A DNA stretch of 64,000 nt from the NCBI RefSeq assembly GCF_016026235.1, contig NZ_CP065613.1; one strand, written 5' to 3'. Position 1 is the first letter of the stretch. Every line of letters starts with the position of its first letter. A program made the position numbers and the translations under genes. The stretch comes from Escherichia coli. GTDB lineage: Bacteria > Pseudomonadota > Gammaproteobacteria > Enterobacterales > Enterobacteriaceae. This document shows, piece after piece, positions 1-21,706 of this stretch. Under the pieces are notes generated by a model that was not told the origin of the DNA, ran no database searches, and saw nothing but the letters and a program-made list of their open reading frames with translations.

Positions 1-1743
1 GCCACCAGCGGCAGTATTTTTTCCAGCTACACCTTTACTGGCGTGCAACTCGCTTCCGACGATAATATGTTGCCAAACAGCCAGCGCGGATTTGCCCCAA
101 CGGTACGCGGTATCGCAAACAGTAGTGCAATCGTGACTATCAGGCAAAATGGTTATGTGATCTATCAAAGCAACGTGCCAGCGGGTGCCTTTGAAATTAA
201 CGATCTCTACCCCTCTTCCAACAGCGGCGATTTAGAAGTCACGATTGAAGAAAGTGACGGTACGCAACGTCGCTTTATCCAGCCTTATTCTTCATTACCC
301 ATGATGCAGCGACCTGGGCATCTAAAATATAGCGCGACCGCTGGACGCTATCGCGCTGATGCAAACAGTGATAGCAAAGAACCCGAATTTGCTGAAGCCA
401 CGGCAATATATGGTTTGAATAATACTTTTACGCTGTATGGCGGCCTGCTCGGTTCTGAAGATTATTATGCGCTGGGGATCGGTATCGGCGGCACACTTGG
501 CGCACTGGGCGCGTTGTCGATGGATATCAACAGAGCTGACACCCAATTCGATAACCAGCACTCTTTTCATGGCTATCAATGGCGTACGCAGTACATCAAA
601 GATATCCCGGAAACCAACACCAATATCGCTGTCAGCTACTATCGCTATACCAACGATGGCTATTTTAGTTTTGATGAAGCCAATACCCGCAATTGGGACT
701 ATAACAGTCGCCAAAAAAGTGAAATTCAATTCAACATCAGCCAGACAATATTTGATGGGGTAAGTCTGTATGCCTCCGGTTCACAGCAAGACTATTGGGG
801 CAATAACGAGAAAAACAGGAATATCTCTGTTGGGGTTTCCGGCCAGCAATGGGGAATTGGTTACAGCCTGAATTATCAATACAGCCGCTACACTGATCAA
901 AATAATGACCGCGCACTCTCTTTGAATCTCAGTATTCCGTTAGAACGCTGGTTACCGCGTAGCCGGGTTTCCTATCAGATGACCAGCCAGAAAGATCGCC
1001 CAACCCAACATGAAATGCGTCTTGATGGCTCACTGCTGGATGATGGTCGCCTGAGCTATAGCCTGGAACAAAGTCTGGATGACGATAACAACCATAACAG
1101 TAGCCTGAACGCCAGTTACCGTTCACCTTATGGAACCTTCAGTGCCGGATACAGTTACGGTAATGACAGCAGCCAATACAATTACGGCGTTACCGGCGGC
1201 GTGGTTATCCATCCTCATGGCGTGACGCTCTCGCAATATCTGGGCAACGCTTTTGCGCTTATCGATGCTAACGGGGCATCTGGCGTGAGGATACAAAACT
1301 ATCCGGGGATTGCTACCGATCCCTTTGGCTATGCAGTGGTTCCTTATCTCACAACTTATCAGGAAAACCGTCTCTCGGTAGATACTACGCAGCTGCCCGA
1401 TAACGTCGATCTTGAACAAACAACACAGTTTGTGGTGCCCAACAGAGGTGCAATGGTAGCGGCGCGTTTCAACGCCAATATCGGTTATCGCGTACTTGTT
1501 ACAGTCAGCGATCGCAACGGTAAACCGTTGCCCTTTGGCGCTCTTGCCAGCAACGATGATACGGGGCAACAAAGTATCGTCGATGAGGGCGGCATACTAT
1601 ATCTCTCTGGGATATCGAGTAAATCACAAAGCTGGACTGTACGCTGGGGAAATCAGGCAGATCAACAATGTCAGTTTGCTTTTAGTACACCGGGTTCAGA
1701 ACCAACAACCTCTGTATTACAAGGCACAGCGCAGTGCCATTAA
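1..1743 (+). CDS. yraJ: Fimbrial outer-membrane usher, C-terminal part (5' end cut by window edge)
   Basis: Open frame runs from the window edge to the stop at 1743; translation is usher-like and is followed by a fimbrial subunit gene. Symbol assigned from K-12 synteny. Confidence 0.85.
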   Translation, partial: ATSGSIFSSYTFTGVQLASDDNMLPNSQRGFAPTVRGIANSSAIVTIRQNGYVIYQSNVPAGAFEINDLYPSSNSGDLEVTIEESDGTQRRFIQPYSSLPMMQRPGHLKYSATAGRYRADANSDSKEPEFAEATAIYGLNNTFTLYGGLLGSEDYYALGIGIGGTLGALGALSMDINRADTQFDNQHSFHGYQWRTQYIKDIPETNTNIAVSYYRYTNDGYFSFDEANTRNWDYNSRQKSEIQFNISQTIFDGVSLYASGSQQDYWGNNEKNRNISVGVSGQQWGIGYSLNYQYSRYTDQNNDRALSLNLSIPLERWLPRSRVSYQMTSQKDRPTQHEMRLDGSLLDDGRLSYSLEQSLDDDNNHNSSLNASYRSPYGTFSAGYSYGNDSSQYNYGVTGGVVIHPHGVTLSQYLGNAFALIDANGASGVRIQNYPGIATDPFGYAVVPYLTTYQENRLSVDTTQLPDNVDLEQTTQFVVPNRGAMVAARFNANIGYRVLVTVSDRNGKPLPFGALASNDDTGQQSIVDEGGILYLSGISSKSQSWTVRWGNQADQQCQFAFSTPGSEPTTSVLQGTAQCH

Positions 1744-16508: not shown

Positions 16509-18398
16509 TTACGCATCACCACCGAAACGACGACGACCGGTAGAGTCATCACGACGCGGAGCGCGGCCTTCACGACGTTCGCCGCTAAAACGACGACCAT
16601 CACCACGGCCACCTTCACGGCGTTCACCGCTGAAGTTACGACCGCCTTCACGACGTTCGCCACCGAAACCACGACCACCGCCACGACGCTCACCGCCAGT
16701 ATGCGGCTGTGCATCGCCCAGTAACTGCATGTTCATCGGCTTGTTGAGAATGCGAGTGCGCGTAAAGTGTTGCAGCACTTCACCCGGCATACCTTTCGGC
16801 AGTTCGATGGTGGAGTGAGAAGCAAACAGCTTGATGTTACCAATGTAACGGCTGCTGATGTCGCCTTCGTTAGCAATCGCACCAACGATATGACGAACTT
16901 CAACACCATCATCGCGGCCCACTTCAATGCGGTACAGCTGCATATCGCCAACATCACGACGTTCACGACGCGGACGATCTTCACGGTCACCACGCGGGCC
17001 ACGGTCGTTACGATCGCGCGGACCACGGTCATCACGGTCACGGAATTCACGTTTCGGACGCATCGGCGCATCTGGCGGTACGATCAGAGTACGTTCACCC
17101 TGTGCCATTTTCAGCAGTGCCGCAGCCAGAGTTTCGAGATCCAGCTCTTCACCTTCAGCAGTCGGCTGAATTTTGCTCAGCAGTGCGCGGTATTGATCCA
17201 GATCGCTGCTTTCCAGCTGCTGCTGTACTTTAGCGGCGAATTTTTCCAGACGGCGTTTGCCTAGCAGTTCTGCGTTCGGCAGTTCTACTTCCGGAATAGT
17301 CAGCTTCATAGTACGTTCAATGTTGCGCAGCAGACGACGCTCGCGGTTCTCAACGAACAGCAGCGCGCGGCCAGCACGACCCGCACGACCGGTACGACCG
17401 ATACGGTGAACGTAAGACTCAGAATCCATCGGGATATCGTAGTTAACTACCAGGCTGATACGCTCAACGTCCAGGCCACGGGCTGCAACGTCGGTCGCAA
17501 TCAGGATGTCCAGACGACCATCTTTCAGGCGTTCCAGTGTCTGTTCACGCAGCGCCTGGTTCATGTCACCGTTCAGCGCGGCGCTGTTGTAGCCGTTACG
17601 CTCAAGAGCTTCAGCCACTTCCAGAGTCGCGTTTTTGGTACGAACGAAGATAATCGCCGCATCAAAATCTTCCGCTTCCAGGAAACGTACCAGTGCTTCG
17701 TTTTTGCGCATACCCCAGACAGTCCAGTAGCTCTGGCTGATGTCAGGACGGGTAGTCACGCTGGACTGAATGCGCACTTCCTGCGGCTCTTTCATAAAGC
17801 GGCGGGTAATGCGACGAATCGCTTCCGGCATGGTTGCAGAGAACAGAGCGGTCTGATGACCTTCCGGGATCTGCGCCATAATGGTTTCAACGTCTTCGAT
17901 GAAGCCCATGCGCAGCATTTCGTCAGCTTCATCCAGAACCAGACCGCTCAGTTTAGAGAGGTCCAGAGTGCCACGTTTCAGGTGGTCCAGCAGACGGCCC
18001 GGAGTACCGACAACGATCTGCGGCCCCTGACGCAGGGCGCGTAATTGCACGTCATAACGCTGGCCGCCGTACAGAGCAACCACATTTACGCCGCGCATGT
18101 GTTTAGAGAAATCCGTCATTGCTTCAGCAACCTGTACCGCCAGTTCGCGGGTCGGTGCCAGCACCAGAATCTGTGGTGCTTTCAGCTCAGGATCAAGATT
18201 CTGCAACAGAGGTAAAGAGAATGCTGCAGTTTTTCCGCTCCCCGTCTGGGCCATACCCAGAACGTCGCGGCCATTCAGCAGATGTGGAATACACTCTGCC
18301 TGAATTGGAGATGGTTTTTCGTAACCCAGATCGTTAAGGGCTTCAAGGATAGGAGCCTTCAGGCCCAGATCTGCAAAAGTGGTTTCGAATTCAGCCAT
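16509..18398 (-). CDS. deaD: Cold-shock DEAD-box ATP-dependent RNA helicase
   Basis: 629 aa from ATG (cat at 18396-18398); AQTGSGKT and DEAD motifs; RGG/ERREGG-repeat C-terminal tail. Confidence 0.9.
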
Positions 18399-18471
18399 GT
18401 AGTACGTGTGCCTCAAAATTAATGGCGGCCAGTCTACATAACTCATCATGAAATTGATCAGCAATTTTCAT
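18391..18471 (-). CDS. yrbN: Small upstream ORF (26 aa) overlapping the deaD start codon
   Basis: The minus strand translates to [26 protein letters not shown] with a stop overlapping the deaD ATG. This matches my recollection of K-12 yrbN, but the call is unverified. Confidence 0.45.
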
Positions 18472-18577
18472 TGAAAAGTGTGAACCGGCTCAAAGTAGGT
18501 GTATTAACGAACAACAACGCCCTCACCCGTTAAGGTGATGGCAATCAAAAAAGATTACGGGCTGATGTGTACGTCAG

Positions 18578-19462
18578 CTATTGCTGGTCCGATTCTGCCA
18601 GGTCATCTTGGTCCTGGCCCAGGAGCGATAATTCCAACAATGCGTATCGGTGCTCAACAAAGTTATGAACGTTGTTGGCAACCGCCAGTTTGAACAGTGC
18701 CGTGGCGCTGTCCAAATCCCCCAGACTTAGGTAGTACTTACCTAAATAGAAGTTGGTTTCACTGAGATGCTCAGCGAGCGAGGTGTTATCCGTTGCGTCC
18801 GCCTTGAGCCTTTCCATTAACGTTTGTTCGCTAATGTTGCCCAGGTAGAACTCGACAATGTTCCATCCCCACTGTTCCTTATCCGATTTTTCGAAGTGCT
18901 GTTTCAACACTTCTTTAGCCTGCTTCTCATCGAGCTTCTGCTCGGCGAGATAAAGCCACAGACTACGGAAAGGATCATTGGGATCGTCTTGATAAAACGC
19001 CAGCAGATCATCTTGCGCTAACTTGTCACGACCGCCGTAATATAATGCGATCCCGCGATTCAAGTGCGCGTAGTTGTAAGTTGGATCAAGCTCAAGTACA
19101 GAATCAAACGCTTCATAGGCAGCATCAAAATTGCCTGCCTGCGTTAAATATATGCCTAAGTAATTGAATACTTCAGGCATATCCGGTCGGATTGCCAGCG
19201 CTTGCGAAAAATCGTTACGCGCTAATGCCCTCAGACCGAGACTATCATACAACACTCCGCGCTCATATAAAAGCTGTGCGCGTTCGTCATCGGTTAAAGC
19301 CCGACTGGCAAGGATTTGTTCCATACGTGCCAGAATCACTTCCTGCTGTAAAGTCGGTTGCAATGGTACCGCGAGGACTTCACTTTTACGCCAGGAAGTA
19401 TTACTGCATCCTGCAAGCGTAAGTGCTGTCGCAACGAAACACCAGCGCAAAAAAGGCTTCAT
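18578..19462 (-). CDS. nlpI: TPR-repeat outer-membrane lipoprotein
   Basis: 294 aa; lipobox LTLAGC followed by TPR repeats. Confidence 0.9.
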
Positions 19463-19570
19463 TTCCCACTCCCGAAGACCACGGTTGAATGAACGTCCTG
19501 TTCCCGGTTGCTAACAAGGCGTCCTGCCCGGTTAAAAGCCCCCCGCCGCAGCGGAGGGCAAATGGCAACC

Positions 19571-21706
19571 TTACTCGCCCTGTTCAGCAGCCGGAGCTTC
19601 CGGTGCTGCAGCAGGTTGAGACTGCTCAGTCGCTTCTTTAATGCTCAGACGGATACGGCCCTGGCGATCAACTTCCAGAACTTTCACCGGTACTTCCTGA
19701 CCCATCTGCAGGTAATCGGTCACTTTCTCAACGCGTTTGTCAGCGATTTGAGAGATGTGGACCAGACCTTCTTTACCGCCGCCGATGGCAACAAATGCGC
19801 CAAAGTCAACGATACGGGTCACTTTACCAGTGTAGACGCGGCCCACTTCGATTTCTGCAGTGATCTCTTCGATACGACGAATAGCATGTTTCGCTTTCTC
19901 GCCGTCGGTCGCTGCGATCTTCACAGTACCGTCATCTTCGATTTCGATGGTAGTGCCAGTTTCTTCGGTCAGGGCACGGATAACAGAGCCGCCTTTACCG
20001 ATAACGTCTTTGATCTTATCCGGGTTGATCTTGATGGTATGGATACGCGGTGCGAACTCAGAGATATCGCCACGCGGCGCGTTGATCGCCTGTTCCATTA
20101 CGCCCAGGATATGCAGACGCGCACCTTTAGCCTGGTTCAGCGCAACCTGCATGATCTCTTTGGTGATACCTTCAATTTTGATATCCATCTGCAATGCAGA
20201 GATACCCTCGCGGGAACCCGCAACTTTGAAGTCCATATCGCCCAGGTGATCTTCGTCGCCCAAAATGTCAGACAGTACAACGTAGTTGTCGCCTTCTTTC
20301 ACCAGACCCATTGCGATACCCGCAACGGCAGCTTTGATCGGCACACCTGCGTCCATCAGCGCCAGAGACGCGCCGCACACGGAAGCCATAGAAGAGGAAC
20401 CGTTGGATTCAGTGATTTCAGACACAACACGTACGGTGTACGGGAATTTGTCCATATCCGGCATGACTGCCAGCACGCCGCGCTTCGCCAGACGACCGTG
20501 ACCAATTTCACGACGCTTCGGAGAACCGACCATGCCGGTTTCGCCTACGGAGTACGGAGGGAAGTTGTAGTGGAACAGGAAGGTATCGGTACGTTCGCCC
20601 ATCAGTTCATCAAGAACCTGCGCGTCACGAGCAGTACCCAGCGTTGCGGTAACCAGCGCCTGCGTTTCACCACGGGTGAACAGCGCAGAACCGTGAGTAC
20701 GCGGCAGCACGCCAGTACGCACATCCAGACCACGGATCATATCTTTTTCACGACCGTCGATACGCGGTTCGCCTGCCAGTACGCGGCTACGAACAACGTT
20801 TTTCTCGATAGCGTGCAGAATTTCACCCAGTTCGTTTTCGTCCAGGGTTTCGTCTTCAGCAAGCAGCGTCGCGATGGTTTCAGATTTGATGACATCAACC
20901 TGCGCATAACGCTCTTGTTTGTCGGTGATGCGGTAAGCATCGCTCAGGCGAGCTTCAGCCAGTGCAGCAACGCGCGCGTTCAGCGCTTCGTTTACCGGCT
21001 CCGGCTGCCAGTCCCAACGCGGTTTACCGGCTTCTTTCACCAGTTCATTGATGTTCTGAATAACAACCTGCTGTTGTTCATGACCGAACACTACTGCGCC
21101 CAGCATCTGGTCTTCGCTCAGCAGTTCAGCTTCAGATTCAACCATCAGTACAGCGGCTTCAGTACCCGCAACAACCAGATCCAGTTTGCTCTCTTTCAGC
21201 TCGTCCTGAGTCGGGTTCAGTACGTACTGGTCATTGATGTAACCTACGCGGGCAGCACCAATCGGGCCATTGAACGGAATACCAGACAGAGACAGTGCTG
21301 CGGAAGCACCAATCATCGCGACGATATCCGGGTTAACCTGCGGGTTAACAGAAACCACGGTGGCGATAACCTGAACTTCGTTGACGAAGCCTTCCGGGAA
21401 CAGCGGGCGAATCGGGCGGTCAATCAGACGCGCGATCAGGGTTTCGCCTTCGCTTGGACGACCTTCACGACGGAAGAAGCTACCCGGGATACGACCAGCA
21501 GCGTAGGTACGCTCCTGATAGTTAACGGTCAGTGGGAAGAAGTCCTGACCTGGTTTGGCTTTTTTCTGGCCAACAACGGTAACAAATACCGCGGTGTCAT
21601 CCATGCTAACCATAACAGCGGCAGTAGCCTGACGAGCCATCATGCCGGTTTCCAGAGTCACGGTGTGTTGGCCGTACTGGAATTTACGAACGATCGGATT
21701 AAGCAA
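19571..21706 (-). CDS. pnp: Polynucleotide phosphorylase
   Basis: 711 aa from a UUG start (caa at 21704-21706); two RNase PH domains plus KH and S1 domains. Confidence 0.9.

Follow-up and report, generated by a model that had tools for sequence, protein, structure and literature searches.

yrbN, a 26-codon open reading frame overlapping the deaD start codon in Escherichia coli, and its conservation in Enterobacterales

Results

The gene deaD (csdA), which encodes the main cold-shock RNA helicase of Escherichia coli, lies on the minus strand of the 64,000-nt stretch of DNA analysed here (the window). Directly upstream of it, on the same strand and downstream of nlpI, is the small gene yrbN (Table 1), an arrangement that is common to 76 Enterobacterales loci. 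The ORF is real, as the initial annotation had it: the ORF listing shows 26 codons from an ATG start to a TGA stop on the minus strand (18471..18391). Its tentative identification as yrbN was correct as well. RefSeq places 'protein YrbN' (WP_010723222.1) at exactly the same position, and the peptide matches the NCBIfam profile NF033440 (small_YrbN, equivalog) over positions 1-26 of 26 with 76.3 bits and E = 9.4e-22, the curated cutoff of this family being a whole-protein HMM score of 33 bits. In RefSeq, yrbN is annotated in 5425 of the 5426 complete E. coli genomes. It carries the identifiers b4685 and UniProt C1P618 (YRBN_ECOLI), the databases give no function for it, and its UniRef title is 'Uncharacterized protein YrbN'.

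The known gene and the ORF of the window do not differ in sequence, in their position between nlpI and deaD, in their length of 26 aa or in the 8-nt overlap with deaD. Both the ORF and its overlap are already known from databases and from a 2021 preprint, which also proposes a leader-peptide role; according to that preprint, yrbN is a conserved small-protein gene identified by Hemm et al. (2008). An ORF of 26 codons alone is not beyond chance, because 63 ORFs of at least 20 aa were listed within 4 kb. What sets yrbN apart from chance is its conservation.

Table 1. Features of the nlpI-yrbN-deaD region and their positions in the window
Feature	Coordinates	Strand	Basis or remark
nlpI CDS	18578..19462	-	3' two-thirds shared with the deaD 5' leader (its first ~660 nt)
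Main deaD promoter (-35 TTTATA, -10 TATGAT), inside nlpI	19244..19271	-	Promoter scan
Non-coding flank TTTGAGCCGGTTCACACTTTTCA, nearly invariant, adjoining the yrbN ATG on its 5' side	18472..18494	-	Mean majority fraction 0.967 (60 unique sequences)
yrbN CDS, 26 codons plus TGA, within the deaD 5' leader	18391..18471	-	ORF listing, RefSeq, NCBIfam NF033440
Predicted alternative hairpin H1	18428..18489	-	Non-coding GCCGGUU pairs with GACUGGC (yrbN codons 13-15)
Predicted hairpin H2	18393..18443	-	yrbN codons 10-16 (AGUUAUGUAGACUGGCC) pair with the deaD SD-to-AUG region (GGCACACGUACUACAUGGCU)
deaD Shine-Dalgarno (SD) sequence GAGG, inside yrbN codons 20-21, 12 nt upstream of ATG	18411..18414	-	
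Stop/start overlap of 8 nt, ATGGCTGA, holding the deaD ATG and the yrbN TGA	18391..18398	-	Read from sequence
deaD (csdA) CDS, DEAD-box cold-shock RNA helicase, start MAEFETTF	16509..18398	-	RefSeq start and 76-locus alignment agree

Two other candidates were discarded. An alternative-frame ORF of 22 aa with a GTG start lies across the yrbN start (18526..18458), and neither its length nor its stop position is conserved. The cold-shock-induced small protein labelled 'yrbN_PAIR_0' in a figure legend (VanOrsdel 2018) is YnfR, encoded next to cspI; its sequence is unrelated and the name is an artefact.

The -10 element found by the promoter scan is the one mutated by Ojha and Jain (PMC7430678). 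With it, transcription starts near 19236, the leader measures 838 nt up to the deaD ATG, and yrbN occupies about +766..+846 of this leader. This leader is a proven target of Rho-dependent termination and autoregulation, and Rho products of 400-900 nt were obtained in vitro, a range covering the yrbN region (PMC7430678). Deletion of -101..-820, which leaves yrbN and the two hairpins H1 and H2 intact, abolishes both autoregulation and Rho dependence (Ojha and Jain, PMC7430678), indicating that essential elements lie upstream of yrbN. The deaD-lacZ fusions of these authors were expressed and autoregulated, and yrbN is not mentioned. It is considered neither in the 2020 study of the deaD leader nor in a 2025 review on Rho, which discusses no uORF at deaD and describes its cold antitermination with the words 'exact mechanism undetermined' (PMC12360218). 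A composition scan, which is a crude proxy, revealed a single stretch with C>G, at +451..510, and nothing rut-like (C-rich, G-poor) in yrbN or its vicinity, and no terminator-like sites were found in the search for an intrinsic terminator in 18300..19350. In Erwinia, yrbN and the helicase gene are co-induced, by 3.6-fold and 3.8-fold, respectively (PMC9371280).

With the deaD ATG at 18398..18396 and the yrbN TGA at 18393..18391, the ORF overlaps the deaD start in a different frame, as initially described. The 8 nt that are shared, counting the stop, are ATGGCTGA, read as CAT GGC TGA in the yrbN frame and as ATG GCT GAA in the deaD frame. That the ORF ends 5 nt past the first base of the deaD ATG was approximately right: the last sense codon ends at +5 relative to this A and the TGA begins 5 nt past it, while the ORF including its stop extends to +8. 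In none of the 76 loci does the yrbN stop lie outside -17..+11 relative to the deaD ATG. The overlap measures 8 or 11 nt in 59 loci and is not universal, as the stop lies 13-17 nt upstream of the ATG in the other 17, mostly Erwinia/Pantoea, plus Dickeya. The T at a deaD wobble site that creates the yrbN TGA is present in 75 of the 76 loci, the mean majority fraction of deaD wobble sites being 0.68; without that TGA, the next in-frame stop would follow 16 codons further on.

Conservation of the small ORF, which had been suggested as a check, was confirmed: the yrbN ATG is present and the ORF intact in all 76 Enterobacterales loci. No stop interrupts the frame before codon 18 in any of them, and those that occur (17/76) always come after this codon, whereas each of the two other frames contains stops in all 76 loci. 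Indels are in phase with a single exception, found in Dickeya downstream of the early stop of that species. The loop lengths (6, 9 or 12 nt) and the spacer (7 or 10 nt) differ in phase, Dickeya excepted. Genuine synonymous changes are seen at His8 (CAC 37, CAT 15) and Asp9 (GAT 37, GAC 35).

At the peptide level, conservation is uneven. Seven families share the core F[HL]DELCRLAA unchanged. Free variation, including radical substitutions, is seen at residues 3-6 and 17-19, and the C-terminus is variable (HG, HD, DY, DH), with the last 8 residues lost in most Erwinia/Pantoea (18 aa) and in Dickeya (19 aa). In one lineage (L083) the frame is kept and the peptide has changed beyond recognition by the YrbN profile. 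Over the 76 loci we found no conserved arrest or sensing motif in YrbN and no proline-rich or RAPP-like motif, and the peptide has no run of regulatory codons, unlike an attenuation leader of the trpL/hisL type. The core is frozen at its wobble sites too, which points to a constraint on the RNA. Taken together, the free residues, the missing C-terminus in most Erwiniaceae and the frozen wobble sites speak against control through the peptide sequence, one of the two options raised in the initial annotation.

Codon periodicity is weak in yrbN (conservation of 0.91, 0.93 and 0.85 at codon positions 1, 2 and 3) when compared with deaD (0.94 at positions 1-2 and 0.68 at position 3). ORF columns within the predicted stems reach a mean conservation of 0.939 versus 0.716 for the rest (p = 1e-6), and wobble sites 0.967 within predicted stems versus 0.587 outside. 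As far as the structure models go, conservation thus tracks the predicted RNA stems and not codon periodicity, and an RNA constraint overlies the coding constraint. Outside the Enterobacterales, ORFs ending near the deaD start were not enriched (15 of 70 loci versus 14-18 of 70 in controls). Of 85 divergent DeaD loci, 76 have an assigned start, and the YrbN profile matched none of the ORFs upstream of these 76 significantly.

Two mutually exclusive hairpins, which use the same yrbN bases, are predicted for this region. H2, whose loop is formed by the variable yrbN codons 17-19, has a calculated dG of -19.5 kcal/mol (z -3.72), a stability reached by 1 of 200 shuffles. All 8 lineages tested have H2 as their minimum-energy structure, with z between -2.4 and -4.6 in 7 of them, despite a 3' arm that is not the same from lineage to lineage. 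In 99% of 70 unique loci, the predicted probability of the deaD AUG being unpaired is below 0.2; the single-sequence shuffle control for this pairing is weak, with 18% of the shuffles at least as paired. H1 would enclose the yrbN AUG in its inner stem and the variable codons 3-6 in its loop (dG -18.5 kcal/mol, z -3.14; 0 of 200 shuffles as stable). Its outer stem is invariant apart from three changes, two of which keep the pairing (G.U to A-U and U-A to U.G). The energies of the two hairpins differ by a median of only 0.2 kcal/mol over 50 unique sequences. With sequences this close to invariant, covariation does not reach significance for either hairpin, and H2 offers no compensatory changes. 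An Rfam covariance-model scan of 18200..19600 returned no match at E <= 1.

The deaD SD forms an anti-SD duplex of about -5.6 kcal/mol, and its GAGGCA motif is conserved in all loci. For yrbN, no SD was detected in the 5' flank, where the best anti-SD duplex (-3.6 kcal/mol) is part of the H1 stem and separated from the ATG by 10 nt or more. Between 10 and 42 °C, 3 of 4 species tested show a flat equilibrium accessibility of the yrbN AUG and of the deaD SD and AUG. An equilibrium RNA-thermometer model found no support, as accessibility had no consistent temperature dependence over this range.

Discussion

With moderate confidence we propose that yrbN acts in cis: its translation would melt H2 and deliver ribosomes to deaD. 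The deaD SD and AUG would be masked by pairing with yrbN codons 10-16. A ribosome translating yrbN would melt this hairpin and terminate on or just before the deaD AUG, after which deaD would be translated either by a new 30S subunit binding the exposed site (UTNI) or by the terminated ribosome reinitiating (TeRe). Selection would then act on translation itself and on the stop-codon position, not on the YrbN sequence. H1, which competes for the same bases and partly buries the yrbN AUG, could turn the region into a two-state switch. Such a coupling fits the anatomy and the comparative data read from the sequences, namely the placement of the stop, the wobble T found in 75 of 76 loci and the predicted pairing of the ribosome-binding site.

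Several observations count against coupling. The sequence of yrbN offers ribosomes no SD at which to start. The deaD gene has a moderate SD of its own and could initiate independently whenever H1 forms. The shuffle control for pairing of the deaD AUG is weak, covariation is not significant for either hairpin, and the deaD-lacZ fusions of Ojha and Jain were expressed and autoregulated with yrbN left out of account.

More tentatively, and with considerable doubt, yrbN together with H1 and H2 may form a bistable translational switch that supplies the missing mechanism of deaD control. H1 would form first during transcription and leave the deaD ribosome-binding site open, and refolding to H2 would mask the site unless yrbN is translated. 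This refolding would be slow in the cold and sped up by CspA or the helicase activity of DeaD itself, and the degree to which ribosomes then occupy the leader end would set the access of Rho and RNases. A switch of this kind would account for the cold-induced antitermination as well as for the negative autoregulation of deaD, whose mechanisms are called undetermined in the literature. If yrbN translation does gate a masked deaD start, it would provide a simple link between RNA unwinding capacity, translation and Rho termination, and a function for a small protein found in thousands of annotated genomes and still labelled 'uncharacterized'.

The main effect of yrbN translation could instead be on Rho-dependent premature termination and deaD mRNA decay, comparable to tnaC, speFL, mgtL and corL. 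The yrbN ribosomes, or the fold they impose, would then decide whether Rho and RNase gain access to the end of the leader and the deaD start. Such control would be compatible with translational coupling and could underlie cold-induced antitermination and DeaD autoregulation. We regard it as a real but rather unlikely possibility. It is in agreement with the proven role of the leader in Rho control and autoregulation, with in vitro products whose size range includes the yrbN region (PMC7430678), with the 'undetermined' mechanism of cold antitermination (PMC12360218) and with the nearly equal predicted energies of H1 and H2. However, the deletion that eliminates autoregulation and Rho dependence spares yrbN and both hairpins, the crude composition scan shows no rut-like stretch near or within yrbN, and a C-terminus that varies and is truncated in Erwiniaceae holds no conserved arrest motif. 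A role of YrbN in trans, through binding to a partner such as DeaD, the ribosome or the degradosome, would make its position a matter of ordinary operon organisation. This is improbable in our view, even though seven families keep the core unchanged, NCBIfam curates YrbN as an equivalog and the preprint, referring to Hemm et al. (2008), lists a conserved small-protein gene. The core coincides with the predicted stems and is invariant at wobble sites, so the peptide is not needed for its conservation; moreover, positions 3-6 and 17-19 take radical substitutions, the last 8 residues are missing in most Erwinia/Pantoea and in Dickeya, and one lineage retains the frame but not a recognisable peptide.

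The opposite proposal, in which the ORF is incidental and a pure RNA element switches between H1 and H2 to control access to the deaD ribosome-binding site without functional translation, draws on the same pattern of conservation. Stems and loops, not codon periodicity, are followed; the non-coding flank is as conserved as the ORF; and yrbN lacks an SD and has its AUG in the H1 stem. Nevertheless, we give it little credence. A hairpin loop need not vary by threes, yet loops of 6, 9 and 12 nt occur by family with no frame break before the stop. The ATG is retained in 76/76 loci, only the yrbN frame is open throughout while both other frames are closed, and the T that makes the TGA is fixed at a deaD wobble site. 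We also considered that the conserved sequence belongs to an N-terminal extension of DeaD, as in older 646/651-aa models that start at an in-frame ATGATG or TTG, and not to a separate ORF. In E. coli, the deaD frame is indeed open for 23 codons upstream of the ATG and contains an in-frame ATG ATG and a TTG. Several lineages, however, have in-frame stops there (L015-type, L033, Photorhabdus, L053, Dickeya), the upstream in-frame ATG is absent in 20 of 76 loci and variable in position in the rest, and the RefSeq start is MAEFE. On the grounds of these stops and of the missing or variable ATG, the extension was rejected as extremely improbable.

Action of yrbN in cis can be compared with several known leader systems. 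Attenuation leaders of the trpL/hisL type differ in that yrbN has no regulatory codon run and no terminator-like site lies in 18300..19350. In tnaC-tnaA, speFL-speF, mgtL-mgtA and corL-corA (PMC12360218), as in deaD, a short uORF is part of a long leader that is a proven target of Rho. In contrast to these, yrbN has no conserved arrest motif and abuts deaD with no rut-containing spacer in between, and the leader deletion that abolishes Rho control of deaD leaves yrbN in place; the review of Rho does not list deaD among the uORF-mediated cases (PMC12360218). The leaders of ermCL-ermC and catA86 resemble the model predicted here in two respects: the downstream ribosome-binding site pairs with the 3' portion of the leader ORF, and two alternative hairpins use a common arm. 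They differ in that yrbN has no known stalling signal or inducer, and plain translation, not a stall, would open the site. An RNA thermometer or a cspA-type switch would require alternative structures whose balance, and with it the access to the ribosome-binding site, shifts with temperature; here two nearly isoenergetic states are predicted, but the equilibrium accessibility, as noted above, is flat in 3 of 4 species.

Stop/start overlaps of 4 nt or 1 nt are the most common classes, whereas yrbN and deaD overlap by 8 or 11 nt or, in 17 of 76 loci, do not overlap, the stop preceding the ATG by 13-17 nt. In this the pair differs from TeRe; the similarity lies in a stop that overlaps the downstream start and in a deaD SD located inside yrbN. 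Both TeRe and UTNI have been defined previously, the latter with the examples atpHA, rplJL and infC-rpmI-rplT (PMC6728339). Compared with UTNI, where the upstream partner is a full-length protein gene, yrbN is an ORF of 26 codons in a long 5' leader and lacks its own SD, and the dependence of deaD translation on it is a prediction. What deaD would share with UTNI is a predicted pairing of its SD and AUG with coding bases of the ORF upstream, which translation of that ORF would open.

Identity of yrbN and its overlap with deaD

The genes in the window follow the order pnp-nlpI-yrbN-deaD-mtr, all on the minus strand. The initial annotation had described a 26-codon ORF running into deaD in another frame and named it as yrbN. 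Its coordinates, peptide and frame relation were all confirmed by the ORF listing and by sequence reading. The distance of 5 nt past the A of the deaD ATG holds for the first base of the stop codon, whereas the last base of the stop lies 7 nt past this A. Direct reading gives an overlap of 8 nt (ATGGCTGA), read in different frames.

With 63 ORFs of 20 aa or more listed within 4 kb, the size of the ORF alone is unremarkable. Its identity was borne out by a RefSeq feature ('yrbN: protein YrbN') at the match and by a full-length match of the peptide to the NCBIfam equivalog NF033440 'small_YrbN' (76.3 bits, cutoff 33). Megablast found the region, with the same feature beneath the match, in 5,425 of 5,426 complete E. 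coli genomes, and in one annotated record the yrbN CDS (WP_010723222.1) extends 8 nt into deaD. The NCBI name 'protein YrbN' is already attached to variants from Salmonella, Yersinia, Serratia, Photorhabdus, Cedecea, Pectobacterium, Edwardsiella and Pantoea, UniRef has it under the title 'Uncharacterized protein YrbN', and a 2021 bioRxiv preprint names Hemm et al. as the discoverers. This is a real ORF, its identification as yrbN was correct, and, given the database annotations and the preprint, it is already known.

Coordinates of the features discussed
Feature	Position	Strand	Description
yrbN ORF	18391..18471	minus	ATG start; ORF listing
deaD ATG	18398..18396	minus	sequence reading
yrbN TGA	18393..18391	minus	sequence reading
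H1 (predicted)	18489..18428	minus	non-coding GCCGGUU pairs with GACUGGC
H2 (predicted)	18443..18393	minus	AGUUAUGUAG-AC-UG-GCC pairs with deaD initiation region GGC-CA-GU-CUACAUGGCU
yrbN codon 13	18433-18435	minus	rare Arg codon AGA
In-frame ATG ATG and TTG	18444-18464	minus	upstream of annotated deaD ATG
nlpI-yrbN intergenic region	18472-18577	minus	106 nt; highly conserved across Enterobacterales, including GGGCGTTGTTGTTCGTT
-10 element TATGAT	19249..19244	minus	promoter scan
Marine/environmental uORF	L152:~930-1000, L160:~1310-1380, L121:~1405-1500		upstream of DeaD homologue start

Maintenance of the yrbN frame in Enterobacterales

DeaD loci were fetched from 80 Enterobacterales species, and 76 usable loci, the window counted in, were analysed. 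The small ORF proved to be conserved across this set: its ATG is present in 76/76 loci and the frame stays open, with lengths of 18, 19, 24, 25 or 26 codons. Two segments vary, with 6, 9 or 12 nt and with 7 or 10 nt, so that all length changes are in phase except in Dickeya, where yrbN already ended upstream of the sole out-of-phase change. Between the yrbN ATG and the deaD ATG, stops in the yrbN frame occur in 17/76 loci and always after codon 18; the other two frames each contain stops in all 76. Synonymous codons alternate in a balanced manner at His8 (CAC 37, CAT 15) and Asp9 (GAT 37, GAC 35). The T that creates the TGA, at a deaD wobble position, is found in 75 loci, the only exception being Dickeya with its earlier yrbN end, and without this TGA E. 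coli yrbN would extend 16 codons further. The combination of ATG, phase, open frame, synonymous alternation and fixed TGA is hard to explain unless ribosomes translate the yrbN frame.

In 59/76 loci the yrbN stop falls within deaD, and the shared stretch measures 8 nt (ATGRCTGA) or, in Yersiniaceae and Morganellaceae, 11 nt (ATGACYACTGA). The ORF of most Erwinia and Pantoea has 18 codons and ends 17 nt ahead of the deaD ATG, at a TAA that immediately precedes the deaD Shine-Dalgarno sequence (SD); the Dickeya TGA lies 13 nt before the ATG. The conserved feature is a yrbN stop no more than about one ribosome footprint away from the deaD start, and not the overlap as such. Some Yersinia records (P0154) give YrbN a length of 24 aa, with the second Met (codon 3) as its start. 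This codon is ATG in 38/76 loci, which gives half of the lineages an alternative start two codons downstream.

Constraint on peptide and RNA

Radical substitutions are tolerated at residues 3-6 and 17-19, and the C-terminal 8 residues can be missing altogether. Wobble positions are frozen too in the invariant core F[HL]DELCRLAA (TTA 75/76, AGA 75, CTG 76, GCC 76), compared with a mean wobble majority of 0.71 for deaD codons of invariant amino acids in the same genomes. Codon periodicity is weak (0.91, 0.93 and 0.85 at positions 1, 2 and 3), and the 23 non-coding nt 5' of the yrbN ATG are equally conserved (0.967). The alignments thus point to a weakly constrained peptide and a strongly constrained RNA. 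The initial annotation, which had proposed translational coupling or leader-peptide control, named a conserved nucleotide sequence with a non-conserved peptide as evidence against it; judged in this way over the 76 loci, a role depending on the peptide sequence is disfavoured, whereas a role of translation as such is supported.

Predicted hairpins in the deaD leader

The E. coli leader is predicted to adopt two mutually exclusive folds, H1 (-18.5 kcal/mol, z = -3.1) and H2 (-19.5 kcal/mol, z = -3.7), with yrbN codons 10-15 common to both. Predicted H1 holds the yrbN AUG in its inner stem and variable codons 3-6 in its loop, and predicted H2 covers the SD, AUG and codon 2 of deaD, with variable yrbN codons 17-19 as the loop. 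H2 was the minimum-energy fold in 8/8 lineages tested, despite differing 3' arms (ACGUACUAC, GUGUAC, AGUUUAC, CCAUUAC). The probability of an unpaired deaD AUG was <0.2 in 99% of 70 unique loci, the single-sequence shuffle control being weak. Among ORF columns, those in one or other of the predicted stems are much more conserved (0.939) than those outside them (0.716; p = 1e-6). The comparison is not circular, as only the E. coli sequence was used for structure prediction. Constrained folding of 50 unique sequences gave a median energy gap of 0.2 kcal/mol between H1 and H2. Covariation was not significant for H1/H2, since the aligned loci contain no compensatory substitutions; the equilibrium model showed no consistent temperature dependence, and Rfam holds no family for the yrbN/deaD leader region.

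Two of the frozen codons are rare ones, AGA (codon 13) and TTA (Leu, position 11). Pairing in both modelled hairpins would explain their retention, and slow decoding at a conserved site in this part of the switch might have a bearing on timing as well.

Promoter, spacer and Rho control

About 90% of deaD transcription comes from a start 838 nt upstream of the ATG (Ojha and Jain, PMC7430678). The -10 element of these authors was recovered in our promoter scan and puts the start of transcription at about 19236, within nlpI. DeaD represses itself via mRNA decay and Rho-dependent termination, for which the leader is required; a deletion from -101 to -820 abolished regulation and left yrbN intact, and yrbN is nowhere mentioned by the authors (PMC7430678). 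In a 2025 review on Rho, deaD figures among the targets of cold-responsive antitermination, 'exact mechanism undetermined', and is absent from the uORF-mediated cases (PMC12360218). Erwinia amylovora shows co-induction of yrbN (3.6-fold) and its neighbouring helicase gene (3.8-fold; PMC9371280). A cold-shock-induced small protein is called 'yrbN_PAIR_0' in the Figure 2 legend of a further study, whose text and table say YnfR (PMC6001520). We rejected it as YrbN, as YnfR has 21 aa, lies next to cspI and is unrelated in sequence; this naming inconsistency could mislead text mining on YrbN cold induction.

In the nlpI-yrbN spacer, one predicted hairpin (GCUGA...UCAGC) directly follows the nlpI stop. 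A second (CAUCACC/GGGUGAG), followed by a U-rich tract, was not called as a terminator by a simple terminator scan. The spacer might function as a processing site or as an attenuator of nlpI; a 5' end at -173 was reportedly mapped by primer extension in an old study.

Distribution of yrbN and other deaD leaders

An AT-rich bacterium (L083) with a DeaD of 72% identity and pnp-nlpI-deaD synteny carries a 28-codon ORF before deaD. Relative to the recognisable GAGTTR...CTGGC nucleotides, this ORF is in the yrbN frame; 12 nt are inserted in phase, and its stop lies 13 nt ahead of the deaD ATG. Its altered core GUAAGCU is predicted to pair still with the altered pre-AUG AGUUUAC, and its peptide gave no match to the YrbN profile. 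The Pasteurellaceae-like loci (L088-L091) are without yrbN, and start-proximal uORFs are not enriched at DeaD genes of ~50-60% identity (15/70 vs 14-18/70 controls). By these three observations, yrbN is characteristic of Enterobacterales and near relatives.

A different conserved leader uORF (peptide M[KN][SN]LGVYCAAS[KQ][SP]G[HP][KQ]KPKPQV[IN]) is common to three marine/environmental DeaD homologues, whose own N-terminus is MSSTDFAELGISAPVLKAV. The uORF closes with TAATG, its stop and the helicase start having 1 nt in common, and it may represent an analogous case of deaD coupling that is independent of yrbN. Two further loci, L087 (~1377-1460) and L109 (DeaD ~56-64% identity), have in common a 7-bp hairpin GCGCCUC/GAGGCG upstream of the start that is predicted to sequester the SD GAGG. 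A short ORF (MRASLN..RR.NV) begins just 5' of it and in L109 ends in ATGTCTGA, with the 8-nt overlap geometry of E. coli. As there are only two examples, the resemblance could be chance.

Proposed translational coupling and alternative readings

An N-terminal extension of DeaD was rejected as a rival explanation of the conserved sequence, because in-frame stops interrupt it in several lineages and the upstream in-frame ATG is absent in 20/76 loci. In E. coli the deaD frame is open upstream of the annotated ATG, hence a 651-aa form in the ORF listing, and this is probably the reason for longer older gene models; conservation of this extension does not reach other genera. A trans-acting YrbN peptide is improbable and sits less well with the data, among them the tolerance of radical residue changes; a purely RNA element is just as improbable and likewise less consistent with the data, which include the maintained frame. 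More credible than these two, though still doubtful, is that yrbN acts on Rho access and mRNA decay, besides or instead of coupling. This reading is the more novel one and would bear on how deaD is cold-induced and autoregulated.

We lean towards a cis-acting yrbN, whose translation would both open H2 and bring ribosomes to deaD, by delivery or by recruitment. Since yrbN has no SD (best anti-SD pairing -3.6 kcal/mol, within the H1 stem), how and when it initiates is likely the regulated step. The proposed coupling of yrbN and deaD is plausible and draws support from frame maintenance and structure prediction. Huber et al. define two forms of bacterial translational coupling (PMC6728339): unmasking of the downstream initiation region (UTNI), in which this region pairs with the upstream ORF, and termination-reinitiation (TeRe), in which stop and start codons overlap. 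The yrbN-deaD anatomy resembles UTNI in its predicted pairing and TeRe in its stop/start arrangement, and this fit to both forms favours a cis-acting role of yrbN.
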